Translations under genes and position numbers: made by a program
Part shown: one piece after another, positions 5,127 through 46,540 of the stretch
Layout of the letters: every line of letters begins with the position of its first letter
Position numbering within the stretch: position 1 is the stretch's first letter
IMG/VR virus record: IMGVR_UViG_3300005805_000045
Location: 64,001 to 128,000 of that record
Direction: 5' to 3' (one strand)
DNA length: 64,000 nucleotides
Source: a virus
The notes under the pieces: model-generated
The model's input: only the letters and a program-made list of their open reading frames with translations
Told to the model about the DNA's origin: nothing
Databases searched by the model: none

Positions 5127-6587
5127 TTAGAACGTACCACCATCCAACATTGCAAATTGAGGAACACCAGAAGCATCTGCTTGTAGAACTTGTCCTTCTG
5201 TGCCTGCCGAGGTAACTTTCAGAGCACCTGTTGTATTGCCATATAGAATGCCATTTTGAGTAACAGAAGTTCTACCAGTACCACCATAAGCGACAGATAT
5301 AACATCAGCATTCCAAGTACCAGAGATAATTGTTCCAAGACCTGTAATACCTGAATAGTCACCCGTTAGTCTTGCTGAAGGAACTGTACCAACAGTCAAG
5401 AATGATGCATTACCTGCATTTACGTTAGCTGTATTTGCTTTATCATATGCAAGAGATGCTATGATATTTGCTGTATTTGCTTTATTAAATGCTGATGTAG
5501 TATTAGCGTCTACTAGATATGCATAGTAATTTGCAGAGTTTGCTTTATTGTAAGAATTTGTTGCAATATCTGTTGCAGTATTAGCTTGTGTAAATGCTGA
5601 TGTAGTATTAGCGTCTACTAGATATGCATAGTAATTTGCAGAGTTTGCTTTATTGTAAGAATTTGTAATCCAAACAATCGCATTGGTACCACCGAGATTT
5701 AGATTGCTTGTACGAATGTCAGCATTTAGAACGGAAAGCGAGAAACCATTTGCATAAGGATCAATGTGATTATTAAAAGGTTCTTCATCATATCCTTGGA
5801 ATAGATAATATTCTTTTGTAACATGCTCTCTATAAAGACCAGTATGTACGTTTGAACCTGTTGCATTGACATAATTTGCTATGAAACCAATATCAACAAT
5901 ATCTGAAGTGTAGTTATTACCTGCAAGATAAAGAAGAGGATCAGAAATAACAAGAGTTGAAACGTTAGCAAAAATAGTATTACCAGTGAGCGTTAATTCG
6001 CCTGTAATAGAAAGATCACCAGTAATAGTACCACCAGTTAGTGGCAACTTTGTGTTTGAGTTTGCATAAGCAGCTATTGCAATATCTGTTGCAGTATTAG
6101 CTTGTGTATAAGCAGAGACAGCACGAACGTTAACAGTATTGGCAAAATTGAATGCAGCAACAGCATGATCATTAACAGTGTTTGAAAAATTAAATGCAGC
6201 TATTGCATTTGCATCAATTAGTGAAGCATAATAGTTTGCCGAATTGGCTTTGTTAAATGCATCAATAGCAATTGTTCTGGCTGTATTAGCTTGTGTAAAT
6301 GCCGCTGTAGCGTTAGCATCAACTAGGTATGCATAATAGTTGGCTGAATTTGCTTTATCAAAAGCCGCTGTTAGAATCGCAGAATTTGCATTTGCATTGT
6401 TATAAACGGATGCAAGAACATCAATGTAATATTTACCACCAATCTCTATGACATCATCACCAGCAGCATTACCTATAAATGCTTTTCCAGAGACGTATGA
6501 ATATGCTGGTTCAGCTGGTGAGAGTGATCCAGGTGCTGGTGCTGTTGTAGAACTTGATCGCTTAATCTGGATAATAGTATTAGACAT
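5127..6587 (-). CDS. Tail fibre protein with ANSANYY repeats
   Basis: IIQIKRSS N-terminus, KLPLTGGTITGDL, VAYGGTG and C-terminal LDGGTF. Confidence 0.75.
   Translation of the reverse strand: MSNTIIQIKRSSSTTAPAPGSLSPAEPAYSYVSGKAFIGNAAGDDVIEIGGKYYIDVLASVYNNANANSAILTAAFDKANSANYYAYLVDANATAAFTQANTARTIAIDAFNKANSANYYASLIDANAIAAFNFSNTVNDHAVAAFNFANTVNVRAVSAYTQANTATDIAIAAYANSNTKLPLTGGTITGDLSITGELTLTGNTIFANVSTLVISDPLLYLAGNNYTSDIVDIGFIANYVNATGSNVHTGLYREHVTKEYYLFQGYDEEPFNNHIDPYANGFSLSVLNADIRTSNLNLGGTNAIVWITNSYNKANSANYYAYLVDANTTSAFTQANTATDIATNSYNKANSANYYAYLVDANTTSAFNKANTANIIASLAYDKANTANVNAGNASFLTVGTVPSARLTGDYSGITGLGTIISGTWNADVISVAYGGTGRTSVTQNGILYGNTTGALKVTSAGTEGQVLQADASGVPQFAMLDGGTF
5486..5666. repeat. 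Exact 76-bp direct repeat, period 105 bp
   Basis: 5486-5561 is identical to 5591-5666 and encodes TNSYNKANSANYYAYLVDANTTSAF twice. Confidence 0.9.
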
Positions 6588-6588
6588 T

Positions 6589-6825
6589 TTAGAACGTTCC
6601 TCCGTTTACAACAGGCAGTACCTTTATAACGTATTTTCCACTGTCTGCATCATAAACGAGTGTTTCATTATTATCAGAATCACTGGCATCTACATCCAAA
6701 AGAGATGAAAGATAGTTTACTTGAACTGTTGGAGCAATTCCCACTGTTCTTACTTCTGTCCTCTTTGACTCAGAAATAGCTATTCTATTTTTTCCAGTTG
6801 AATTTATTATTGCTTTGATTGCCAT
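6589..6825 (-). CDS. Small virion protein
   Basis: LSSLLDVD..NETLVYD motif; ends NGGTF like the neighbouring fibre. Confidence 0.6.
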   Translation of the reverse strand: MAIKAIINSTGKNRIAISESKRTEVRTVGIAPTVQVNYLSSLLDVDASDSDNNETLVYDADSGKYVIKVLPVVNGGTF

Positions 6826-6830
6826 TTATT

Positions 6831-7169
6831 TTACTTTGTTACTTGTGGTAGTATATTTATTATTCCTTCTAATACTCTTGAGACAACATTTGCTTGATCG
6901 ACAGTCTTAACATCAAAAAGATAGCGACCTGGCTTGATATTAGCTGTCTGTCCAGAAGTCATAGATAGTGTGATTTCACCATTTGATGCATTTGTTATCG
7001 TACAAGTTATGTTTGCTGCGGCATTCACTGAATAATATGATCTTCTCAATTGACTGGTCACTATATAATTGGATGCATTGATGGCTGCATTACTCAAATC
7101 ATCAGTCAAGTTGATGATGTTATTGAATGTTGTTCCTTGGTCTATGAAAAGTTCTACGAATGCTGCCAT
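6831..7169 (-). CDS. Baseplate/tail adaptor protein (BppU-like Ig fold)
   Basis: LFIDQGTTF..GRYLFDV..RVLEG motif typical of T4-like phages. Confidence 0.65.
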   Translation of the reverse strand: MAAFVELFIDQGTTFNNIINLTDDLSNAAINASNYIVTSQLRRSYYSVNAAANITCTITNASNGEITLSMTSGQTANIKPGRYLFDVKTVDQANVVSRVLEGIINILPQVTK

Positions 7170-7367
7170 TTACTTGATTAGTCCCTTGAGTAATTGCTTG
7201 ATTTCTTGCATGTCTTGTCGTAAGTTTGCAACTTCATTTTCAATATTGTCTACTTTCTTCTCACGCATTTTTTTTCTTTTATATGCCTGAAGGGTATTTG
7301 CATCTTTATTGATGAATACGCCTTCAGATACTTTAAAGATTCCTGGAATTTGTGTCTTCTCAGCCAT
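7170..7367 (-). CDS. Small coiled-coil protein
   Basis: Small gene commonly downstream of VrlC-like genes (LRQDMQEIKQLL). Confidence 0.6.
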   Translation of the reverse strand: MAEKTQIPGIFKVSEGVFINKDANTLQAYKRKKMREKKVDNIENEVANLRQDMQEIKQLLKGLIK

Positions 7368-27236: not shown

Positions 27237-29875
27237 TGGTAAATAGAATATCGACAAGAATGGATCAAATGCCAAGACGGGATTTGACCGCTGCACTAAC
27301 GATAGATCCTAGAAGAAATAGACAATTGCCTATTCAAGCTATGCCTGTACTTAGAGGTAGAGATATATCTGAATTAGAGGCGATATCTGCTGCCGAATAT
27401 GCTGCTAAGTTTCCTTCTCATGGAAGAAGATTGGCTTCGTTATCTACAGGTGGTATTGCTCGTGACTTTGCTTCATCTGGTGGAACACCATCAAGTGCAG
27501 CGCCAGAAGTGAGTCCAGAATCTGGCGCTGCACCAGCTCCTTCTGGTCGTACACCTTCTGGATCTTCCGCTGCACCAGCTGGTCCTTCAGGAAGAAAAAA
27601 AGAAGGAGAACCTCAAGTTCCTGCATGGCAACAGGGTTTAGATAAGATAGCTGGTGCACCCAAAACTGGTCCAAGAACTGGTCCTATCGATAGAAGCAAA
27701 TTTAAAAGTGAACTTGATGATCCAGCAGTAAGACGCTTATTTGGAGATATGATACAAGCAGAAGTTGGACATCAGGGAAGAGAAGCACAAATTAGACTTG
27801 CTGAAACAGTATTCAATCGTGCAATGTATGAAGGCAAAACACTAAAACAAATTTTGTCAGACGAAAAATATTATCAACCATATCGTAATGGTAGATTTGC
27901 TGCTGCTCAAAAAGAAATAAACGAAGAGAAAAGAAATCATCTAAATGGTATAATTGATCACACTTATGCTGGTTCAGATGAAACAGATGGTGCTGCTCAC
28001 AATTTTGCTGGACACATACCTGATGATTTGATTGTTGGAAAATATGGCGGCATTCCTGGATCAATCAAAAAAGTTGGTAATGAAAAATACTACAGAAAGA
28101 AATATAAGAATGAGATTGAGGGTTATAAAAACTTACCAAGAGTAGAAGAAAAATCAACAGAACAAAGAGAGCTTCCTTCAATACCAGAAGGATATGAGAA
28201 ATTACCAAAAGCAGTACGTGATAAAATTGAGAAATATGATCCGGAACAGCGATCTAGATTGTTTGATCATTTCAATAAAAATCCAGAAGCAATTGATCAA
28301 TTAACAAAACAATACGAATCAAAACAAGGAATAGTATCACCAGAAAAAAATGCAGCAGAAGTAGTAGATAAAGCACTAACAACTGAAACTGGACTAGCTA
28401 CTCCATCAAAAAACTTTAGATTTCAAGATGGTTGGATAACTTCACAATCTGATAGAAATTGGAATCAATGTGTTGCCCTTTCTCGTGCGTTCAATCCAGA
28501 TGTAGGACGAGCATCACAATGGAAAGTTGATCCAAAAGCACAAATAGTGCCTGGAAGTATGGTAGCATCTACAAAATATGGCACTGGAAGTACGCCTGGT
28601 GGTACACCTGGTGCTGGCTATCACACAGGAATTGCATTGACTGCTCCTGATAAAAATGGTAACTTTCTTATTTTAGATCAAGGTTCTGGTATGCGTGCTG
28701 TTGTCAGACAAAGTAATATCAATGGCAGAGTATTTGGTGGACAAGCTGGTGTAGTGCAAGGAACTCAACCATCTATGGCAGCATTAGAAACTGCTCTCAA
28801 AATGACTAAAAATGAAAATCACATTGAAAGAATTAAACAATCTATTGATCAATTAAAAAAACAAACAGATGTTAATAAAGAACCAATGACAGAAGATCAG
28901 CGTCGTGCAGCAGGTGCAACAAAAGAAGAAAAAGAAGAAGTAAATAAACAATCTTCAATAGAAAAACCATTAGTAACAACAGTTTCACCACCTGAACAGC
29001 CTACAGATCAGAGACAAGCTCAAAGTCGTGGTTCAGCAGAACTTGCTCTTCCGCCCGTGTCTCAAACACTGCCTGTTCCAAAATCAGAATCAACATCACC
29101 AGTTTTACCACCAGTTGTGACAACAGTTTCACCTTCATCATCGGCATTCACTGCTCCAACAACACCTGCTGAACCTCAAGCACAACCAGCTGTTCCTCAA
29201 GAGCCAAAAGCACCCACTGCTCCAACAACACCGGCGACACCTGCTGAACCACAAGCACAACCAGCTGTTCTTCAAGAGCCACCAAAGTTAATTGAACCTG
29301 TTACAGAAGTAAGAGGAATGCCAGCTCCAGCAGCAACAGCAGAGCCTGCGCCTCAACCTGCACCGCCTTCACCTCAACCAGAAGCAGCACCTTCGTCAGA
29401 AAAACAAGATTATCAAGAATATCAATATGGTGGTGAAAAGAGAGTACCAGATAAGGACAATCTGAGAGTTATCAACGAAGATACAGGCAAAACTCTGTTC
29501 AAGATGAATCCATCAGAAGGGATTCATATAAATCAGGTTGGAAATGTTGAAGTAACACCTCAACAGCGAATATATCCCGGTGATATTCAAAAGCAACAAA
29601 AAGTACGACAAAACAAAGAGATGCAAGAATCTCAAGAAACTCAAAGAGAACTGAGTACACCATCAGCACAACCATCTCCACAAGCATATACAAATGCTTC
29701 AAATCCAGGTCTCGAACATATGAGAGCAGCAGAAATGGACATGTCTAATATTCTTGGCTCAGTTTCGTTCAGACGATCTGTAGGAAGAAGCAGATTTGTC
29801 AGCGTTGGTAATTCTATTCTTGGTGGCCATTTTGACTACGGTGCAGCTAACATGAGCAGAAGGTCCACTTCATAA
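27236..29875 (+). CDS. Large virion protein with SleB/CwlJ-like hydrolase and NlpC/P60 (Tae-like) amidase domains
   Basis: AEVGHQG..Q...AETVFNR..YYQP; QCVAL..HTGI..ILDQ (Cys-His-Asp); Pro/Ala/Gln-rich linkers. Confidence 0.6.
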   Translation: MVNRISTRMDQMPRRDLTAALTIDPRRNRQLPIQAMPVLRGRDISELEAISAAEYAAKFPSHGRRLASLSTGGIARDFASSGGTPSSAAPEVSPESGAAPAPSGRTPSGSSAAPAGPSGRKKEGEPQVPAWQQGLDKIAGAPKTGPRTGPIDRSKFKSELDDPAVRRLFGDMIQAEVGHQGREAQIRLAETVFNRAMYEGKTLKQILSDEKYYQPYRNGRFAAAQKEINEEKRNHLNGIIDHTYAGSDETDGAAHNFAGHIPDDLIVGKYGGIPGSIKKVGNEKYYRKKYKNEIEGYKNLPRVEEKSTEQRELPSIPEGYEKLPKAVRDKIEKYDPEQRSRLFDHFNKNPEAIDQLTKQYESKQGIVSPEKNAAEVVDKALTTETGLATPSKNFRFQDGWITSQSDRNWNQCVALSRAFNPDVGRASQWKVDPKAQIVPGSMVASTKYGTGSTPGGTPGAGYHTGIALTAPDKNGNFLILDQGSGMRAVVRQSNINGRVFGGQAGVVQGTQPSMAALETALKMTKNENHIERIKQSIDQLKKQTDVNKEPMTEDQRRAAGATKEEKEEVNKQSSIEKPLVTTVSPPEQPTDQRQAQSRGSAELALPPVSQTLPVPKSESTSPVLPPVVTTVSPSSSAFTAPTTPAEPQAQPAVPQEPKAPTAPTTPATPAEPQAQPAVLQEPPKLIEPVTEVRGMPAPAATAEPAPQPAPPSPQPEAAPSSEKQDYQEYQYGGEKRVPDKDNLRVINEDTGKTLFKMNPSEGIHINQVGNVEVTPQQRIYPGDIQKQQKVRQNKEMQESQETQRELSTPSAQPSPQAYTNASNPGLEHMRAAEMDMSNILGSVSFRRSVGRSRFVSVGNSILGGHFDYGAANMSRRSTS
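29150..29280 (+). repeat. Intragenic duplication encoding TAPTTPA..EPQAQPAVxQEP twice
   Basis: actgctccaacaacacc and cctgctgaacc.caagcacaaccagctgtt each occur twice. Confidence 0.75.
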
Positions 29876-29876
29876 T

Positions 29877-32282
29877 ATGGAAGACAGATCAAAGAAGAGA
29901 ATAACAACAAAAGACTTGACAGTTGATACAGTCTATAAAAGAAGACTGCCCTTATCTGGTGCCGAAAGAATTGAGAGAGAAGAATCGTTTCTTGAGAGTT
30001 TGTCACCAGCTGCTTATTCTGCAATGTTTCCTCAAAATAAAGCTCCATCTCAAGGAAGCGGCTCAAGTCCTGGTTCGGGAAATAGATCGCCCATGTCTGG
30101 TGCACCTGGACCTAGTGGTGGATCACAAAGACAGCCAACACCACCAGCATCATCAGAAACACCTGCTCCTTCAATACCACGTCAAGCACGGAAAGTTGAA
30201 TCAGCAGATATACCAGAGGGCACTCAAGCACCAGGTGAGGGTGTTGGAGTTATACCAAGTTTAATTCCTGAAGGTGGCAAATCAGATGATGTTGCGAGAG
30301 AAGCAGAGGGATTTACTCCTGAACCAGCAAAGGTACCAGACGTTACAGCAGAACCTCAGTCAAAAGCAAAATCTTCTAGAACACGTGGTTTTTCTCTGAC
30401 ACCAACAGAAGGCGTTCAAGATTCAAATCTTGCACCTCAAGTTGATCTATACGATAAAGAAACAATTTTTGGTTCTACTCCTACTATAGAATCACAACAA
30501 CAAACAGCAGTACCATCAGCAACAGATCAGCCGGCAACACCACAATCTGCACCACCTCCAATGCCTGATGATCCAGAAAAGTCAAAAGATGAGAGAGAGT
30601 TTCAAGCAAACGATACAGTCTTAGATCAGAAATCTGGCATATCATTTATGGATCAAAGAAATAAAGTTGGTGCTGATCTCAGAGGTGTTGACCCAAGATT
30701 AAAACATATGACAGCCGAAGGTATTCGTGTGTTTGAAAACATGCATCAGGGCAGATATAAAGTTGAAATTCTTGGTCCATCGGGCGGAATGAGAAGTGCA
30801 ACAACGTCATATCATGGTTCTGGTGGAGCACTCGATCTAGTCATAGTTGATACTAGAACAGGCAGAAGACTAACAAATTTTCCTGGATATGACAAACGTT
30901 ATGGATATCAAGGAAGTGCTGGTGAAAATGCACACATATATCAAGACTTGATGAACAGAGCCAAAATTGCTGCTCATAAATTTTATCCTGATGTTTCAGG
31001 TAGTGTGAGATGGGGTGGTTATGGTAAGTGGCAAGGCAATGAATTTGATACAATGCATATTGACCTTGATCCTCAAGGTAGAGGCATGGGTGGTGGCACG
31101 TTCGAAAAAGGATTCAGCCGTGAGTTTATGGAAAAGTATGGTGTAAGATCCAATCAGCCAATCACAGATATTGAAGATGCTGTGAAACAGCAATATGCAC
31201 CAGGTGGACCAAAACGACAAGATGCTCCTACTGCTCCAGCTGCAGGACCATCAGACAAAGAAAAATTGTATGATCTGTATAGAAAAGAGACAGGACGTAA
31301 TCCTTACAATACAGGACTAATGAGAAATACAGTAGAGACAGATGACTTCAAAAAATGGAGCGAGAATAAATCTGTTACTGCTGTTCCACAAAGTGAAAAA
31401 AGTGAAACTGGATTCAAATCATTTGCCACATTCGATGATAAAGAATTAGAAAGAAAATACTCAAAAGATGCAGAACAGCGAGAATCATATCCTAATCCAC
31501 CATCAATGGTTGTGCTGCATGACGTTTCAGCACCTAAAGGAGGAAAGCCAACAGTAGGAGCAGCAAAGGGTGCTTATCATATGGCTTTTGATGAGAATGG
31601 CTTTTATCTAAACTCTCGTTTGGATAAACAAGCACCACATGCCGCTGATTTCAATGAATTGTCTTTGGGTCTAGCACACGTAGGAATGGAAGGTGATAAG
31701 TTGTCACCAAAAGCAATCAAGCATGGTGCACACGCTTTGGCATATATGATGAAGTTTCATCCACAAATTACCTTAGACAGTCTCAGAACACACGCTGAAC
31801 TAAATGCTGATCCAAGAAAAGGCATTGTGGGAACTAGAATGGGTGGTAAAAATCCTAAAGAAGGATCATGGAGAGAAAGTGTACTAGATTATCTACAAAA
31901 GAATCCACATATCATGAAGATGAGCTTAGAAGAACTTGAGGGTAGACAAAAAAAGATGGAGTATGGTGGTGAGCTTCGTTTGCCCAATCAATTCTCTATG
32001 GAAGATGATGAGTCTGATATGCTGAACACATATCAAGAATCTTTTGATTCTGATAACTACACCGAAAACATCCTAAACAAGACTGAGTACGAAACTAATT
32101 ATGCAAGGACACCGCCACAAAGAGATGATGCTATACATGATTTGGCTAACGATGCTACATCAACAAGAGACATGACAGACTGTGCTGCATTCAATCGATT
32201 TGTTGCCAGATCAAGATTCGAACAAACGGGTGATCCTATAATCGGTGGTCACTTTGATTATGGTGCATCAAACTTCAATTAA
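29877..32282 (+). CDS. Large virion protein with M15-like peptidase and Amidase_2-like domains
   Basis: SYHGSGGALDL..RWGG..DTMHID; VVLHD..AYH..APHA.DFN..SLGL..THAEL. Confidence 0.65.
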   Translation: MEDRSKKRITTKDLTVDTVYKRRLPLSGAERIEREESFLESLSPAAYSAMFPQNKAPSQGSGSSPGSGNRSPMSGAPGPSGGSQRQPTPPASSETPAPSIPRQARKVESADIPEGTQAPGEGVGVIPSLIPEGGKSDDVAREAEGFTPEPAKVPDVTAEPQSKAKSSRTRGFSLTPTEGVQDSNLAPQVDLYDKETIFGSTPTIESQQQTAVPSATDQPATPQSAPPPMPDDPEKSKDEREFQANDTVLDQKSGISFMDQRNKVGADLRGVDPRLKHMTAEGIRVFENMHQGRYKVEILGPSGGMRSATTSYHGSGGALDLVIVDTRTGRRLTNFPGYDKRYGYQGSAGENAHIYQDLMNRAKIAAHKFYPDVSGSVRWGGYGKWQGNEFDTMHIDLDPQGRGMGGGTFEKGFSREFMEKYGVRSNQPITDIEDAVKQQYAPGGPKRQDAPTAPAAGPSDKEKLYDLYRKETGRNPYNTGLMRNTVETDDFKKWSENKSVTAVPQSEKSETGFKSFATFDDKELERKYSKDAEQRESYPNPPSMVVLHDVSAPKGGKPTVGAAKGAYHMAFDENGFYLNSRLDKQAPHAADFNELSLGLAHVGMEGDKLSPKAIKHGAHALAYMMKFHPQITLDSLRTHAELNADPRKGIVGTRMGGKNPKEGSWRESVLDYLQKNPHIMKMSLEELEGRQKKMEYGGELRLPNQFSMEDDESDMLNTYQESFDSDNYTENILNKTEYETNYARTPPQRDDAIHDLANDATSTRDMTDCAAFNRFVARSRFEQTGDPIIGGHFDYGASNFN

Positions 32283-34743: not shown

Positions 34744-35138
34744 GTGGTGGCCCGTTTCTTTTATGGGTGGTACCATACCCCTATTCAAGACATAATCAAG
34801 AATAGCTGATATGTTCTGTTTCTAGGTCATCAGCATACCCAATGAGATCAGGCTGCTAGAGCCATCTCAAATGGTGCGTTATCATTGGCACCTAAGTTTT
34901 TCTTGCGTTACGTAGCTTGCGCACGGTATCTCCACAATCTTCCATCCGTCTGTCAATCCTGTTTCACGCCCATCAAAGATACACAAAAGTTTCTCCAACA
35001 GTATTATATCTGCCTTAACTGTTGACTAGCACTAATTGAAATAATTAGTCAGAAACTAAGTCCTTTTGTGTATCTGTGGTGGACGTGTGCGGTACTGCCC
35101 CGCAGTCCAGTCCGTCTTCCAACAGCTTCATCGATACA
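34744..35138 (-). ncRNA. ssrA: Two-piece (circularly permuted) tmRNA
   Basis: Acceptor piece ends CACGTCC-A-CCA at 35077; coding piece starts GGGCGTG at 34971 (G3-U70 Ala determinant); tag ORF 34848-34889 ANDNAPFEMALAA*. Confidence 0.93.
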
Positions 35139-35142
35139 GATG

Positions 35143-35150
35143 TATTTATA
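35143..35150 (-). promoter_or_regulatory. Late promoter TATAAATA driving the tmRNA
   Basis: Perfect consensus directly upstream of the acceptor piece. Confidence 0.85.
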
Positions 35151-35843
35151 TCAGGAGTATTTCTTTTTGTCAAGATGGTAATCATAAATCTTCTGAAACA
35201 GATTCAACTCATAATCTTCTTTACGTTTGACGAAGACCTGTGGATCAGGTTCATTGTCCACGGAAATGATGATGACGATTTGATCGATGGGAATGCCAAC
35301 ACGTTCTTCATACATGAAACTGTATGCGGTTGTCTGTTCAAAATAGTTCTGGATGAACTTCTCAGGTTTGATTTTGGTTGAGGTCTTGAAGTCAATGACA
35401 CTCAGTTCCCCATCGAACTCACCAATCACGTCTGTTCGACCTGCTAGTCGCATCTTGGTCGAGTAAAGCGGACACTCGATATAATGGATGTTATCAATGC
35501 GATCAAGAGTTGGTCGCATGTCATAGAAAGCCTGACGCTGATCAGGCATCACGCCTTCGTGCAACACTTCTTTGATTGGTTTGTTTTCGAGATACCGTTC
35601 CATCATCGAATGGAACTTGGAGCCTCGAGTCGTCGCGCGATTGGTTATTCTGTTTGCTTCTTCATGTCCAACGCGACTTCTCCATTCTTCAATGCTCTTC
35701 TTTTTGAAATGACCAAGCACAGTTGTTACAGATGGAAATGATTCACCTGTTGGAATGATGTAGTGTCTCGCGCCGTTGACTTCCTTAGTTGAAAGTGGCT
35801 GGAGCTTTGGAACCCCAGCCACATAGTTGAATGTTTTTGTCAT
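35151..35843 (-). CDS. PD-(D/E)XK exonuclease (Cas4/lambda-exonuclease-like)
   Basis: PSVTTVL, RG..FH, AGRTD...VIDFKTS, Q..AY. Confidence 0.88.
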   Translation of the reverse strand: MTKTFNYVAGVPKLQPLSTKEVNGARHYIIPTGESFPSVTTVLGHFKKKSIEEWRSRVGHEEANRITNRATTRGSKFHSMMERYLENKPIKEVLHEGVMPDQRQAFYDMRPTLDRIDNIHYIECPLYSTKMRLAGRTDVIGEFDGELSVIDFKTSTKIKPEKFIQNYFEQTTAYSFMYEERVGIPIDQIVIIISVDNEPDPQVFVKRKEDYELNLFQKIYDYHLDKKKYS

Positions 35844-36012: not shown

Positions 36013-36540
36013 TCAGTCCTTTGGCATGAAGGTTATTCTTCGTCTCTTCTTTTCGGGTCTGCGTAGTTGATACTCTGTTTCGCCGTAAGGGTTTCTTGGT
36101 GCGCCTAAGTCTCCTTGACCATATCTCGTTGGACCATACTCGTCTTTCTCACCTTTACGCGCGGTGCCAGTGTAGATCGCAGTGCCTTTACCGTCGGGCG
36201 TTCTGTGGATGTAGGCGTCTTGGTCATACTTAGTAGACAGTTCGTGTACGTGCTTCAAAAGCTCTTTACCATGTTCATCACTCGTGCCTCGAGCAAAGAC
36301 GTGCAAAGAGTTTTCGCTGCCTACGCCGCCACCCTCATCCCACTTGCCCTTTGTCTTCCTGAAGCCGAACCCTCGATTCCTGAGTTCACCCTTCAGCTCC
36401 TTCATCCTAGCAGCATTCTCCTTGGGTGTCAAGTGCTTCCTTTCAGGTGAGAAGATGGCTGAATGACCCTTGAATGAAGCAACGCGAGACAGGGGATTAC
36501 CCTCTGTTAAGTATGTCCGTAGTTCTTTGAAAGTTTTCAT
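36013..36540 (-). CDS. T3-type SAM lyase (SAMase) homologue with capsid-targeting-like leader
   Basis: IFSPER..LT..EN..R..L...L; G.W.E....ENS; L..KYDQD pattern matches the T3 SAMase family; N-terminus MKTFKELRTYLTE. Confidence 0.65.
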   Translation of the reverse strand: MKTFKELRTYLTEGNPLSRVASFKGHSAIFSPERKHLTPKENAARMKELKGELRNRGFGFRKTKGKWDEGGGVGSENSLHVFARGTSDEHGKELLKHVHELSTKYDQDAYIHRTPDGKGTAIYTGTARKGEKDEYGPTRYGQGDLGAPRNPYGETEYQLRRPEKKRRRITFMPKD

Positions 36541-36547
36541 GGTTAAC

Positions 36548-37144
36548 CTATTTGAGTTCCTGTGTATCGTTTCTTAGTTTATCAAGTCTATTTAACCAAC
36601 CCTTGTGATACTTACCGTATTTATCTGGGTTACTGGTTGCCAAATGGTCATAATGATCTTTCCTGCCTTGAATCAGCTTGTCATAGTTGTCGCCATGCTC
36701 TTTAGCCAATTTTTGAGCGAAGCCTTTGCCTTGATTGATAGCAGCGTCTAGCACGACCGCGCGCGATCTGTGGCTTAGATGGTTGAGTTCACCCATACCC
36801 TCGAAGTAGTGCTTGCGATAAATCTCTTTGGCATCATCTTTGGTCAGGTTAGCGATGTCAACGTCTGGGTGAGCATTCTTGCTGATGCCATATCTCGTCA
36901 TGCCGCCAGTGTCGTGTGTTACTTTACCAGCAGGTCCTTCGTACTTGAATGTCCTGTGTGCAAAGCCTTCGAACTCTTTTTCACGATCTTCGTGCTTCTT
37001 GAGCAGTGCAGCAATGCTATCGGGCTTGCTCATTCTTCTGATCAAGCCACCGATGTGATCTTCTTTGCCTGCAGGAGCAGGATGAATGATTGCTGGTGGA
37101 GATTGTGCGGCGTCTTCTTCGATGAATTGTCTAAACGTCTTCAT
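36548..37144 (-). CDS. GH108 lysozyme (TtsA-like) with capsid-targeting-like leader
   Basis: YEG..DTGG.T.YGIS, LT.DDA..IY...Y, D.AINQG, KGWLNR; N-terminus MKTFRQFIEE. Confidence 0.85.
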   Translation of the reverse strand: MKTFRQFIEEDAAQSPPAIIHPAPAGKEDHIGGLIRRMSKPDSIAALLKKHEDREKEFEGFAHRTFKYEGPAGKVTHDTGGMTRYGISKNAHPDVDIANLTKDDAKEIYRKHYFEGMGELNHLSHRSRAVVLDAAINQGKGFAQKLAKEHGDNYDKLIQGRKDHYDHLATSNPDKYGKYHKGWLNRLDKLRNDTQELK

Positions 37145-37662
37145 TTGAACTTTCCGTCTAATATGTCCTCGATGGGAATTGGTTTGTAGTTAGTTCTCTC
37201 CACAGAAACATTCACATAGCCATCTTTGTCGATCTTCTTTTCGTGTATGTGACCATGAACGTTCAGCGAGGTTGGATACATGCTGAAGTCATTGATCGGG
37301 TAATGCGTGAACAACAAATCTCTCTTGAACATGCCTTTAGTAGCGAGTGATGCCCTGATGCTACTGAAGTATGGAATGAACCTCGCAGCATCGTAATCAT
37401 GATTGCCCATAATGAGCGTTTTGATCCCATTCAATCGTGCGAGCGTGACACCATAAAATTCTGGATGACCAAAGATAACATCACCGACGTGTATCACGGT
37501 GTCCTTTGGTTTGATGATCGAGTTCCAATTCTCAATCATCACTTCGTTCATGTGTGTCACGTCTTTGAAATCAGGCCTCATCAAACTTCCATCAATGCAC
37601 CTGAACGACAGAATATTCGCATGATTGAAGTGCGTATCAGATATAACGAAAACATCACCCAT
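37141..37662 (-). CDS. Calcineurin-like metallophosphoesterase
   Basis: SDTHF, HVGD, GNHD, THYP, HGHIH. Confidence 0.92.
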   Translation of the reverse strand: MGDVFVISDTHFNHANILSFRCIDGSLMRPDFKDVTHMNEVMIENWNSIIKPKDTVIHVGDVIFGHPEFYGVTLARLNGIKTLIMGNHDYDAARFIPYFSSIRASLATKGMFKRDLLFTHYPINDFSMYPTSLNVHGHIHEKKIDKDGYVNVSVERTNYKPIPIEDILDGKFK

Positions 37663-37666
37663 TCAT

Positions 37667-38812
37667 TCACTTCCTTGTTTTGGCCATAGCCCGCTGATTA
37701 TAAGAGTCCTTCATTGCAGCAATGTTATCCTTAGACAACGTTGGGTGATCAGGGAAATGGTGCTGCAATAGCTTGATGATTGGGTCTTTCTTGCCGTGAT
37801 CTGTCTCTCTGCCACCAGGAAGATCGTGTCTGGCCGCAACTTGTGACTCCTCGCCATAAAGCAAATGAGTGAAGCGATGGGCAAATTCATGCTGCTGTTC
37901 GGGAGTGCCGTGTGCCTTCACCGCAGCGATGGTTCCGTGAATCGAGCTGGTGTCTGTGCGCTTGGGGTTGAAGCCCTTGCCGAAGATCATCTTGCCGATG
38001 TTGTGTGGATGCAGTTCACGTTCAGCACCCTTTGATGGTAGCTCTTCGTGAATTGGCAACTTGCTTACTGGATCAACACGTCCTGTGTCTCGTGTCTTTG
38101 CTCTTGCTCCGGGAGCAACCTTGCCACCGATGCTGAGTGTTACACCAGACTCGCCTTGCTTGAGACCTCTCTTGCCCTGAATCATCACTGGCTTTCGCAT
38201 TGACGATGCAGCGGCTCTTAGTGCGACTTTTGATGCTAGTCCAGGAACAGAAGGATGTGACCCCGAGGGGAACATATCTCCCTTGGGTGTGTTCTTGTAC
38301 CACATCGCACCTTGATCAGGCTTGTTGTTCTTGTCGTGCTTCATTGGACTCAAATCAACCTGCGTGACTTGTCCAGTTTTCTTATGTTTCCAGAGAGTGA
38401 ACACACCACCTGGGTCATGTGGATCATCTGATCCTTTGACGTGAACTAGATCATGATGCTCTGTTGATAGCTTACCAACATGATCTTTGAGTGCATGAAG
38501 GTTCTTTAGTGTGTGCTCGTCATCTTTGACAACGTAATCAAGGTCACCAAACTTTTTCTTTCCCACTCTATGAAACTCAGAATCAGGAATTGAAGTATCA
38601 TGGAAATGCTCTGCTGATCCTACTGGAGAAACAGGTGTGCCCCCGAGATGTTGTGATAGCACACCCCTGATTGCATTCGCATGAGGCAGCATTTCTTTTC
38701 TTTGGTGGATTCCAGTAGGCGTGGAACTAACAGTGTTACCATGCTCGTCAGAGTATTGAAGATTGCCGCCTTCTTTGAGTAAGGAATACTGTCTGAAACT
38801 AAGCATGTCCAT
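37667..38812 (-). CDS. Pol-beta superfamily nucleotidyltransferase-like protein
   Basis: VGS..., FGDLD, QVDL catalytic pattern; N-terminus MLSFRQYSLLKE-GGN. Confidence 0.65.
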   Translation of the reverse strand: MDMLSFRQYSLLKEGGNLQYSDEHGNTVSSTPTGIHQRKEMLPHANAIRGVLSQHLGGTPVSPVGSAEHFHDTSIPDSEFHRVGKKKFGDLDYVVKDDEHTLKNLHALKDHVGKLSTEHHDLVHVKGSDDPHDPGGVFTLWKHKKTGQVTQVDLSPMKHDKNNKPDQGAMWYKNTPKGDMFPSGSHPSVPGLASKVALRAAASSMRKPVMIQGKRGLKQGESGVTLSIGGKVAPGARAKTRDTGRVDPVSKLPIHEELPSKGAERELHPHNIGKMIFGKGFNPKRTDTSSIHGTIAAVKAHGTPEQQHEFAHRFTHLLYGEESQVAARHDLPGGRETDHGKKDPIIKLLQHHFPDHPTLSKDNIAAMKDSYNQRAMAKTRK

Positions 38813-39875
38813 GCAGCCTTTCTAGTTGTGGAATCGTGTCTGTTCTAAGGCCACCGCGCTCTTCGATCTTCTTATTGAATCTGGAAACGACTTCATGGTA
38901 ATCTTCTGGGCTGACATGACCTTTCTTGACAGCGTTACTCATGGCTCTATGCATCTCGACCATAGACGAGTCCTCAGATAGCTTTGAACCTAAACGAGAC
39001 CCAAGCCACTCATGTTGTCTGGTGCCACCGTGGGCTGCTCTGTCTTCAGCAGATGTTTTGACGAGTCCATTTGGATGATCTTTGAAACGGGGGAACACAC
39101 GACCTTTGACGAGTGACAATTTCTTGGCACCGCCTGGTTCTTGGTTCTTTCCTGGCTTTCCTGTCTTCTCAGAAACCTCGAGCTTGTTTGCAGGATGTGC
39201 TCCGCCGAGTACAGAAACTGCGGCCTCTGCAAAGGCGTTTCTATGTGCGCCCTTGATCTTTTGATCCAAGTCTTCTCTGTGTGAACTGTTGGCAACGATG
39301 TGTGATGGGTCCATTTCTTCACCCTTGGGACCTTTGGGTGTATGCAATAGATCGATCTGCACAGGTGTCGTGTGACCTTCAGGATGATGGAAATGGAATA
39401 GAGCACTGGTAATACCAGAGCCATGTCGTGTCATGCTTTGTAGCGACATGTGACCAAATCGATTGTCCTTACCATCATTCTTGAACATGCCATGCAAATG
39501 GTTCTGAGACTCTTCGGTTGCGTGAGTATCAATATCGTTGAAATCTTGCTTACCCCATCTGGCCAAATCTTTTGGGGTAGTCTTCTTGTCCATGATGGGA
39601 CCAGTCGAGCCGCCATACTTGATGCCCTTTGAACCAAAGATATTGTGCCCAGCTCTCTCATGAAATCTCTTGCCGAACTCTTCCAGAGAACTATGAATTG
39701 CCTCTCTGTGGTCAGTGCTGATTGGCTCGCTTGCAACGTGACCTTCTCTGGCATCAGTCTTTGGCACAGGCAGAACTGGAATCGCTTTGCCCTTGGGTGT
39801 GGGAAGAAACATGTTCGTCCCGCCACCCTCTAGGAGAAAGTAGTTCTCGATTACAAACTGTTTGAAGGTTTTCAT
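38799..39875 (-). CDS. Pol-beta superfamily nucleotidyltransferase-like protein (paralogue)
   Basis: GGST..., FNDID, VQIDL; N-terminus MKTFKQFVIE..LLE-GGG. Confidence 0.65.
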   Translation of the reverse strand: MKTFKQFVIENYFLLEGGGTNMFLPTPKGKAIPVLPVPKTDAREGHVASEPISTDHREAIHSSLEEFGKRFHERAGHNIFGSKGIKYGGSTGPIMDKKTTPKDLARWGKQDFNDIDTHATEESQNHLHGMFKNDGKDNRFGHMSLQSMTRHGSGITSALFHFHHPEGHTTPVQIDLLHTPKGPKGEEMDPSHIVANSSHREDLDQKIKGAHRNAFAEAAVSVLGGAHPANKLEVSEKTGKPGKNQEPGGAKKLSLVKGRVFPRFKDHPNGLVKTSAEDRAAHGGTRQHEWLGSRLGSKLSEDSSMVEMHRAMSNAVKKGHVSPEDYHEVVSRFNKKIEERGGLRTDTIPQLERLHGHA

Positions 39876-40579
39876 AGTCCCATTTCCGTTCGTTTGATGA
39901 TGTAGTCTCGCACGAGACCTGACCGAACAATGTCCTGCTTCTCAAACTCGATGTAAGCGAACTTGTTCATACGTTTTGTGATATTTATAAAACTCATAAG
40001 GCCACTTTTGTCAGTCTCCTTCACTAGGTCAGTTTGTCGGAAGTCACCACAGAACATGATCTTGGAATAGTCGCCCATACGGGTCATGACTGTATCGAGT
40101 TCTGGGAACGTCATGTTCTGGAGTTCATCGACGATCACGACAGCATTGTTGAACGTGATACCACGAAGAAACGATGTGGTTGTGAAGTGAATGATGCCGC
40201 GCATTTTCAAAATGTCATAACCATCACCTCGACCAAAGAGTTCATCACAAATTTCCTTGTAGGGTTCTTCGTATACGCGAATCTTCTCTTTCACACTACC
40301 AGGAAGGAAACCAATGTCACGAGAAGGAACAACAGAGCGAACGATGATGACTTTATCATAGTTGCTTGATGATGACAGCACTTCATTTAACGCAAGATAC
40401 AAAGAAATGTAAGATTTACCAGTACCAGCATAACCATGAAGCATCAAATTAGAACCACGATTGTAGGCTTCGAAAGTCAGCTGTTGATTTGGTGTGAGTG
40501 GAGAAACTGTTCTGAGTTCGAAATGATTACGTTGCGCAGTCTGTTGATCTTGTTGCTTCTTGACTTTACGTTTTGACAT
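39872..40579 (-). CDS. phoH: PhoH-family ATPase
   Basis: GYAGTGKS, IGFLPG, FLRGITF, VDELQN, GDFRQTDL, DIVRSGLV; ATG 40579 has an AAGGAG RBS. Confidence 0.95.
   Translation of the reverse strand: MSKRKVKKQQDQQTAQRNHFELRTVSPLTPNQQLTFEAYNRGSNLMLHGYAGTGKSYISLYLALNEVLSSSSNYDKVIIVRSVVPSRDIGFLPGSVKEKIRVYEEPYKEICDELFGRGDGYDILKMRGIIHFTTTSFLRGITFNNAVVIVDELQNMTFPELDTVMTRMGDYSKIMFCGDFRQTDLVKETDKSGLMSFINITKRMNKFAYIEFEKQDIVRSGLVRDYIIKRTEMGL
39982..39989 (-). promoter_or_regulatory. Late promoter TATAAATA inside phoH, upstream of the NTase operon
   Basis: Perfect consensus about 107 nt upstream of ATG 39875. Confidence 0.7.
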
Positions 40580-40596
40580 AGTTTCTCCTTTATGCG

Positions 40597-40628
40597 AAAA
40601 AGGGACCTTCCTTAGAGAAAGGCCCCTT
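40597..40628 (-). terminator. Intrinsic terminator-like hairpin between the FmdB-like gene and phoH
   Basis: AAGGGGCCTTTC..GGAAGGTCCCTTTTT on the minus strand. Confidence 0.55.
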
Positions 40629-40670
40629 GCAATTTTCTTAAATTTAGGAATTGTCTTCTTACTCAACTGA

Positions 40671-46108: not shown

Positions 46109-46540
46109 TTATGTTGTGATCAAATCAGGGAATGCTGATTTTACCATCATTGGGGTTAGTCCTTTCACATTTTGTTTTTTGAGGAGCATGTTGGCAAAGA
46201 TTTCTGCCTCTCTAGCTTCAAGACATTCCAAAATTTGAATTAGAATTTGCTTACGTCTACTCTCCGAGAGATTTGCACTGGCTCTTGGATTGTTCTCTTG
46301 AAACAGATACACACGACTCAATTCTTGATGAATAGAGGAGTAGCCAAGACCTGGTGGTGCATCTGACTTTTTGTATGGGGGAATCTCTTTGACGTTGAAC
46401 TTGATGTTGTGATCATATGTGCCCTGGAGTATATTTCGAAGGGCATAACTGGAGTTATTTCGAAGCACATCAATCTTATCATCAACTGTTTCTGCTTTTT
46501 CAAACTCATCAAAGACTTCATAGATATTTTTCATTGTCAT
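46109..46540 (-). CDS. Conserved T4-like protein downstream of RNase H
   Basis: IYEVF..K..VLR, PPYK, FIQILE.L...EA pattern. Confidence 0.7.
   Translation of the reverse strand: MTMKNIYEVFDEFEKAETVDDKIDVLRNNSSYALRNILQGTYDHNIKFNVKEIPPYKKSDAPPGLGYSSIHQELSRVYLFQENNPRASANLSESRRKQILIQILECLEAREAEIFANMLLKKQNVKGLTPMMVKSAFPDLITT

Follow-up and report, generated by a model that had tools for sequence, protein, structure and literature searches.

Here we describe two adjacent genes, termed A and B, whose products appear from motifs and predicted fold to be Pol-beta-superfamily nucleotidyltransferases and are probably carried inside the phage head. They lie in a window of 64,000 nucleotides (positions 64,001 to 128,000 of IMG/VR record IMGVR_UViG_3300005805_000045), and coordinates below are those of the window unless stated otherwise. 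The source record spans 163,885 bp with terminal repeats and represents a marine T4-like myovirus, whose gp23 shares 67% identity with its counterpart in Pelagibacter phage Mosig. Also encoded are a prohead protease of the gp21 type (PF03420 3e-38), a scaffold of the gp22 type (T4_CASP 4e-70) and gp23 itself (Gp23 3e-142). A and B belong to a tightly packed minus-strand run in the order PhoH, A, B, a calcineurin-like metallophosphoesterase (hereafter Metallophos), a GH108-like muramidase, a 175-residue basic protein, a small open reading frame (ORF) and a PD-(D/E)XK nuclease. The features of the locus are as follows.

39872-40666, minus strand: PhoH gene, first in the run, upstream of A.
39982-39989, minus strand: TATAAATA, a late-promoter motif of the T4 type, within the 3' end of the PhoH gene and some 107 nt upstream of where A starts.
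38799-39875, minus strand: putative nucleotidyltransferase A, 358 residues; 16-residue leader ending LLE, then GGG; isoelectric point (pI) of the mature protein 9.3.
39828-39875, minus strand: codons of the predicted capsid-targeting propeptide of A, with aromatic residues at 4 and 7 and (L/I/V)xE sites at residues 10 and 16.
37667-38812, minus strand: putative nucleotidyltransferase B, 381 residues from the first ATG; 12-residue leader ending LKE, then GGN; mature pI 9.5.
37141-37662, minus strand: Metallophos, 173 residues, pI 6.5, without a leader.
36548-37144, minus strand: GH108-like muramidase, 198 residues; 10-residue leader ending IEE.
36013-36540, minus strand: 175-residue basic protein; 13-residue leader ending LTE; weak S-AdoMet-lyase / DUF3293 match.
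34757-35169 (ARAGORN) or 34804-35177 (Rfam), minus strand: two-piece (permuted) tmRNA of the alpha type; distance to the phosphoesterase gene about 2 kb.

The likely start of B is at 38806, which gives a protein of 379 residues, the same length as the database copy. Genome-wide, TATAAATA occurs 18 times on the minus (coding) strand against three times on the plus strand; one copy stands 41 nt upstream of gp23 and a second one in this region at 35143-35150, within the tmRNA region. The tmRNA itself, which a preliminary description of this DNA had placed about 2 kb from the phosphoesterase gene, was found there by both ARAGORN and Rfam (tmRNA_permuted 97 bits, alpha_tmRNA 77 bits). Its alpha-proteobacterial type indicates an alphaproteobacterial host, in agreement with the similarity of the capsid protein to those of Pelagibacter phages. 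A close relative (L003) has an extra 288-residue gene without a Pfam match (6404-7270 of that locus) between PhoH and the A homologue, so the block downstream of PhoH varies among closely related phages.

Both A and B carry the GS, DxD and QxD motifs from which a Pol-beta-type pair had been proposed: G89-S90, D114-x-D116 and Q173-x-D175 in A, and G63-S64, D88-x-D90 and Q149-x-D151 in B (379-residue numbering). All three motifs are invariant across 44 diverse family members, A and B among them, which argues that they did not arise by chance. The pair had also been called paralogous, and this was borne out, at a distance: BLASTP of A against B revealed no significant similarity, whereas profile-profile comparison of the two families with hhalign gave a probability of 97.2% (E 4.5e-11) over about 220 columns with the three motifs in register. 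A and B are thus paralogues, but ancient ones. Metagenomic relatives amount to nine proteins for the A family and seven for the B family; in a quick maximum-likelihood tree, A stands on a very long branch outside all others and B is nested inside the main family. Searches of A and B against Pfam (at E up to 0.1), PHROGs and NCBIfam gave no match, the PolX palm and thumb families PF14792 and PF14791 included. A PDB sequence profile search was likewise empty, and among 50,697 phage records neither megablast with the region nor tblastn with A and B produced a match. Both proteins are unusually rich in histidine, which makes up about 8% of mature residues (27/342 and 30/367).

The fold was examined with AlphaFold models of B (predicted local distance difference test, pLDDT, 79; predicted template modelling score, pTM, 0.76) and A (pLDDT 62), and an alpha-beta palm is present in both. 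With the B model, Foldseek matched pol lambda, pol beta and TdT (best pol lambda, E 4e-4, probability 1.0); in an independent search with VIA-align 2, over about 48,000 representative PDB chains, the top 35 or so rows were all Pol-beta-fold enzymes; and an ESM Atlas search returned viral "nucleotidyltransferase family" clusters at template modelling (TM) scores of 0.72-0.73. The top 38 fold matches of the A model were likewise all of the Pol-beta fold, and its Foldseek rows against the PDB, although weak (best E 0.02), were nearly all Pol-beta-fold. By motifs and predicted fold, then, A and B are Pol-beta-superfamily nucleotidyltransferases, and metal-dependent nucleotidyl transfer would be their activity.

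Within the superfamily, the modelled palm and the candidate thumb domain that follows it give their most extensive superposition with the palm and thumb of the family X polymerases (Pol beta, lambda, mu, TdT and the minimal African swine fever virus Pol X). A and B share with these the GS / DxD / third-Asp triad, with 59-61 residues from DxD to the third Asp; in Pol beta this distance is about 64 residues. They differ in that neither the palm nor the thumb model of PolX in Pfam matches them and an 8-kDa/HhH domain is lacking; in addition, an insert of 24 residues separates GS from DxD, the C-terminus has about 90 additional helical residues, and a GGN hairpin stands at the N-terminus. With the non-canonical poly(A)/poly(U) polymerases CutA, TUT7, GLD-2 and Trf4, the palm alone aligns, and the PAP-associated central domain is missing from A and B. 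Also missing is the combination of a PolyA_pol or class-I head with the tRNA-binding neck, body and tail that marks CCA-adding enzymes and poly(A) polymerases. The same models bear on the suggestion that the pair synthesizes signalling nucleotides, or acts as a decoy, against systems resembling the cyclic oligonucleotide-based antiphage signalling system (CBASS). The matches to cGAS/DncV-like CD-NTases, which are bilobed enzymes, cover the common palm only and are not distinct from other Pol-beta-fold enzymes; moreover, no effector or sponge gene was seen among the neighbours, and the usual partners of the wider family, described below, are a protein of about 300 residues and a cytidylyltransferase-like protein. 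We consider the chance of this explanation to be very slim.

The N-terminus of A reads MKTFKQFVIENYFLLE, then GGG, and that of B MLSFRQYSLLKE, then GGN. The preliminary description had recorded this as a shared LL(K)E-GG start; the observation is sound, the start being invariant in both families, but its meaning had been missed, since the shared N-terminus is most likely a T4-type capsid-targeting propeptide with a prohead-protease site. In T4, the capsid-targeting sequence MKTYQEFIAE is a 10-residue propeptide that is removed by one cut and suffices to load foreign proteins into the head (PMC8442874). Mutants of the T4 sequence demonstrated that targeting needs residues 4 and 7 and processing residues 8 and 10, in propeptides of 10-19 residues (PMC9026906). 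The gp21 protease cleaves after the Glu of I/LxE (PMC12991175), and T4 Alt is cleaved at ITE-6 and LTE-619 (PMC5694885). Positions 4 and 7 are F4 and F7 in A, F4 and Y7 in B, and Y4 and F7 in T4, and the gp23 of the phage studied here has its own LNE site ahead of the mature part.

The same kind of leader is present on unrelated proteins of this genome, including the GH108-like gene (MKTFRQFIEE) and the gene for the 175-residue protein (MKTFKELRTYLTE). In total, leader-type starts were found in four adjacent genes of the window and in seven ORFs of the whole 163.9-kb genome. Two of the three ORFs outside the window are directly downstream of gp23:

Genome 28844-30478 (L002 1844-3478): leader-bearing ORF of 544 residues with a HEAT repeat, just downstream of gp23.
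Genome 31000-31878 (L002 4000-4878): leader-bearing ORF of 292 residues, DUF7178, just downstream of gp23.
Genome 46152-46376 (L002 19152-19376): leader-bearing ORF of 74 residues, DUF5661, with no clear (L/I)xE site.

In its mature form every leader protein is basic (pI 9.0-9.9), unlike Metallophos with its pI of 6.5. The residues that follow the leader Glu differ in the other leader proteins of this genome, which indicates that GGN is part of the enzyme and not of the cleavage site.

The two leader-bearing neighbours of unrelated sequence are absent from the otherwise syntenic relatives L003-L007. The GH108-like muramidase matches Pfam at 9.7e-14 and phrog_315 (endolysin) at 5e-26; judged from its leader, this cell-wall hydrolase would be loaded into the head and would not be a lysis enzyme only. 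A leader-bearing nucleotidyltransferase of the family carries a fused LysM-lysozyme module at L075, a distant locus in IMG/VR. The 175-residue basic protein matches the S-AdoMet lyase family at E 1e-5 and 26 bits, just below the 28-bit cut-off, with a DUF3293 match that is also weak, and may be a candidate injected S-adenosylmethionine-degrading enzyme.

Sequence comparison places A and B in an uncharacterised phage family, PHROG 19290. With the B-family profile, 58 clusters were recovered from 1.8 billion representatives. The core subgroup, which comprises at least 234 loci in IMG/VR, corresponds to PHROG 19290 (member P0073 matches phrog_19290 at 3.7e-41); A and B themselves fall below PHROG and tblastn thresholds. 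The B family alone as query found only two related IMG/VR loci, and a word-indexed protein search with a broad alignment recovered the A and B families again and nothing further. With a core member as tblastn query, the family turned up in CP220-group Campylobacter phages and in Vibrio (Va1), Xanthomonas and Stenotrophomonas (Moby) phages, where all copies are annotated as hypothetical; the family profile matches the cultured homologues (CP220/IBB_35, Va1, Moby and Xanthomonas phage BUDD) at E 1e-84 to 1e-90, as befits members of one protein family with A and B. The same profile found nothing in Mosig, HTVC008M (both Pelagibacter phages) and Melnitz-3 (Methylophilales), the cultured phages whose capsid proteins are most closely related, or in cyanophage S-BM3; the positive controls CP220 and Va1 were matched.

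The N-termini of this wider family bear directly on the nature of the leader. Among 136 distinct N-termini, 112 have a leader ending in Glu directly before GGN and 12 start directly as M-GGN. The leaders range from 6 to 24 residues, and the third residue from the cut is L or I in 104/111 (L 79, I 25, V 5). In the two leaderless starts that were checked, in-frame stops and a Shine-Dalgarno site stand just upstream. In a quick maximum-likelihood tree, the leaderless representatives group as a single clade amid the leader-bearing members, so the leader is an add-on. Both forms exist in cultured phages, the CP220 copy being leader-bearing and those of Va1 and Moby starting at MGGN. The predicted cut would give the same N-terminus as that of the leaderless enzymes after removal of the initiator Met. 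Three proteins (P0043, P0050 and P0056) and L024 5962-7086 have an MGGN start, a leader-like stretch and then Glu-GGN again, an apparent duplication of the N-terminal motif around the leader.

It could be argued that the shared N-terminus is not a packaging tag at all, for example that it is a translation-initiation region or part of the fold, and that A and B are ordinary cytoplasmic enzymes. Packaging in this phage is indeed a prediction, and the leaderless clade of homologues exists in T4-like phages. On the other hand, a leader that varies between 6 and 24 residues yet nearly always puts (L/I)xE directly before an invariant GGN, that recurs on unrelated proteins of the same genome and that agrees with the T4 capsid-targeting sequence at the key positions mapped by experiment is hard to account for in this way, the more so with a leader-bearing homologue found in virions. 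We therefore think that a non-targeting role for the leader is improbable.

That homologue is the product of gene 1-56 (39251-40417) of Campylobacter phage vB_CcoM-IBB_35, a 44,446-Da protein with the N-terminus MKLSELMFILE, followed by GGN. Its match to the profile of the family has an E of 7e-90, with 1.5e-9 for the profile of A and 3e-8 for that of B, and it is among the 38 proteins of purified virions identified by electrospray ionization tandem mass spectrometry, with 17% coverage (PMC3322345 Table S2).

In genomic context, the core family differs from A and B. In 77/80 loci the nucleotidyltransferase is followed by, or fused to, a protein of about 300 residues, here called X, and in 18/80 a cytidylyltransferase-like (HIGH-motif) protein is also present, in some cases with a ParB-like tail; examples of the nucleotidyltransferase and X module are at L009 6073-8961, at L014 (phage Moby) 5004-8121 and in L018-L097. 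This recurrence suggests that the three proteins form a conserved module. No Pfam family covers X, and a language-model atlas search gave only unnamed viral clusters. Searches of this genome, L003, L004 and L010 found neither X nor the cytidylyltransferase-like partner. Leader-bearing fusions reach 2,135 residues, and an amidoligase, another nucleotidyltransferase or a LysM-lysozyme module may form part of them.

The gene next to B is a calcineurin-like phosphoesterase, as had been stated: it matches Pfam PF00149 at 33.2 bits (cut-off 21.5) and phrog_547 at 1e-45, its closest solved chain is Aquifex aq_1665 (7e-11), and the metal motifs DxH, GD, GNHD and GHxH are visible in the translation. 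The first of these begins at residue 9, which leaves no room for a leader. The coupling of this gene to the nucleotidyltransferases, for which a gene-neighbourhood survey had been proposed, is weak. The order PhoH-A-B-Metallophos is kept in close relatives, but these are one clade; elsewhere, Metallophos lies within 6 kb of a family nucleotidyltransferase in only 2/80 other loci, which are near-identical to each other, and this rate is about the chance expectation for a single-copy gene in a 170-kb genome. Furthermore, 1,958 phage records contain a member of the Metallophos family, in a collection where tblastn found no match to A or B, and Mosig lacks both Metallophos and the nucleotidyltransferase family. 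In L008, Metallophos directly follows a leaderless family member. In our reading, Metallophos is co-transcribed with A and B but not packaged, and the link between them is loose.

These results weigh on the proposal that the three genes heal and rebuild RNA 3' ends, with Metallophos clearing 2',3'-cyclic or 3'-phosphate ends and A and B rebuilding the ends of tRNA or tmRNA, for example as split CC- and A-adding activities, to counter tRNA-targeting defences. It draws on the nucleotidyltransferase fold of both proteins, on the RNA 3'-end enzymes (CutA, TUT7, GLD-2, TRAMP and poly(A) polymerases) that tie with PolX in the fold searches (Z 7.2-8.2), on the conserved A-B-Metallophos order in close relatives, on the Metallophos gene that adjoins a family member in L008 and in L035/L036, and on the tmRNA 2 kb away. 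However, structure prediction, which had been suggested as a comparison with CCA enzymes among others, ranked these below PolX and the terminal uridylyltransferases (TUTases) while confirming the fold, and neither a CCA-enzyme nor a poly(A)-polymerase Pfam model matches. The division into CC- and A-adding enzymes is further contradicted by the family at large, most members of which are single-copy: 78/80 loci have one nucleotidyltransferase and no such Metallophos, and the phosphoesterase family is found in the 1,958 records cited above independently of A and B. In addition, A, on its very long branch, is not a matched partner of B, and the leaderless Metallophos would be missing from the cell when injected enzymes arrive. 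With the phosphoesterase coupling weak, the proposal loses its main support, and we give it little credence.

A different use of injected enzymes would be the nucleotidylation (NMPylation) of host proteins or metabolites at the start of infection, in the manner of ADP-ribosylation by T4 Alt, with Metallophos perhaps as an eraser in the producing cell. Delivery in the particle would parallel Alt (PMC9026906), and a non-packaged phosphoesterase in the same operon would suit the eraser role. The fold matches to NMPylating enzymes, however, rank under PolX and the TUTases and extend over no more than about 100 residues; nothing in the NMPylating enzymes corresponds to the extra domain that lines up with the PolX thumb, and Metallophos is not enriched near the family. 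We see a small chance that A and B act in this way. As to the substrate, the three functional options of the preliminary description are each possible and none is favoured. Its caution that function could not be assigned from sequence alone still holds.

Taken together, the fold class, the motif conservation, the leader pattern, the protease and scaffold genes of the phage and the homologue in a virion lead us to regard A and B as probable packaged, protease-trimmed and injected nucleotidyltransferases with a PolX-like palm and thumb. In the pathway we propose, A and B would be made late, each with a short T4-type capsid-targeting propeptide, which would dock the enzyme onto the scaffolding core of the prohead. 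A gp21-type protease would then cut after (L/I)xE to yield a basic mature enzyme that starts with Gly-Gly-Asn, or Gly-Gly-Gly in A. The enzymes would remain with the DNA inside the filled head and be delivered along with the genome to the next host, where they could transfer nucleotides before any phage gene is expressed; the likeliest acceptor would be a 3' end of DNA or RNA. Since the leaderless relatives begin exactly with Met-Gly-Gly-Asn, the exposed N-terminus seems to be important; a further role of the propeptide may be to hold the enzyme in an inactive state within the producing cell, as in a zymogen.

Several observations weigh against injected nucleotidyltransferases of this kind. 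No Pfam PolX or other nucleotidyltransferase model matches A or B, and the GS-to-DxD spacing is 24 residues, compared with about 10 in PolX. The mass-spectrometry support is indirect, coming from a distant homologue (27% identity to A), in a virion list that also has at least one probably non-structural protein, whereas packaging, cleavage, injection and activity in this phage are inferred and not directly seen. The late-promoter motif of A sits farther from the start codon than that of gp23, and the one leaderless clade indicates that the enzyme works without packaging too. Finally, Metallophos adjoins the family in three separate branches (the clade of the window, L008 and L035/L036), so that some functional link between it and A and B may exist.

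The known system closest to the proposed pathway is that of T4's internal head proteins IPI, IPII, IPIII and Alt, which carry a capsid-targeting sequence according to Mullaney and Black (1996), whose work both PMC8442874 and PMC9026906 cite. The likeness includes the short propeptide with aromatic residues at 4 and 7 and an (L/I)xE end, the gp21 protease and gp22 scaffold in the phage, the basic mature proteins and the variable, non-core nature of the genes; Alt, moreover, is also an enzyme that modifies host targets on entry. The differences are that the cargo of the A/B family, a nucleotidyltransferase of the Pol-beta type with 340-370 residues, has no sequence relationship to any of the internal proteins of T4, that an invariant GGN is kept right at the predicted new N-terminus, and that the family includes leaderless forms as well as leader-bearing fusions of up to 2,135 residues. 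The best reading of this case is one more instance of the internal-protein route known from T4, in which the type of cargo is new. A bolder version, to which we would give only a modest chance, is that a widespread PolX-like class is stored in the head as zymogens; cleavage would make the GGN needed for activity, and the enzymes would act at time zero on genome ends or host nucleic acids, as counter-defence or takeover, and elsewhere together with X and the cytidylyltransferase-like enzyme.

Capsid targeting in T4 has so far concerned a handful of small proteins and one enzyme, Alt. A capsid-targeting leader would change the biology of A and B to that of proteins delivered inside the particle, and, if this is true, the same delivery route carries a conserved family of Pol-beta-type enzymes, with at least 234 loci in IMG/VR and members in cultured Campylobacter phages. 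The contrast between leader-(L/I)xE-GGN and M-GGN would then be a simple sequence rule that tells packaged from non-packaged forms of one enzyme, and would explain a hypothetical protein in a published virion proteome.

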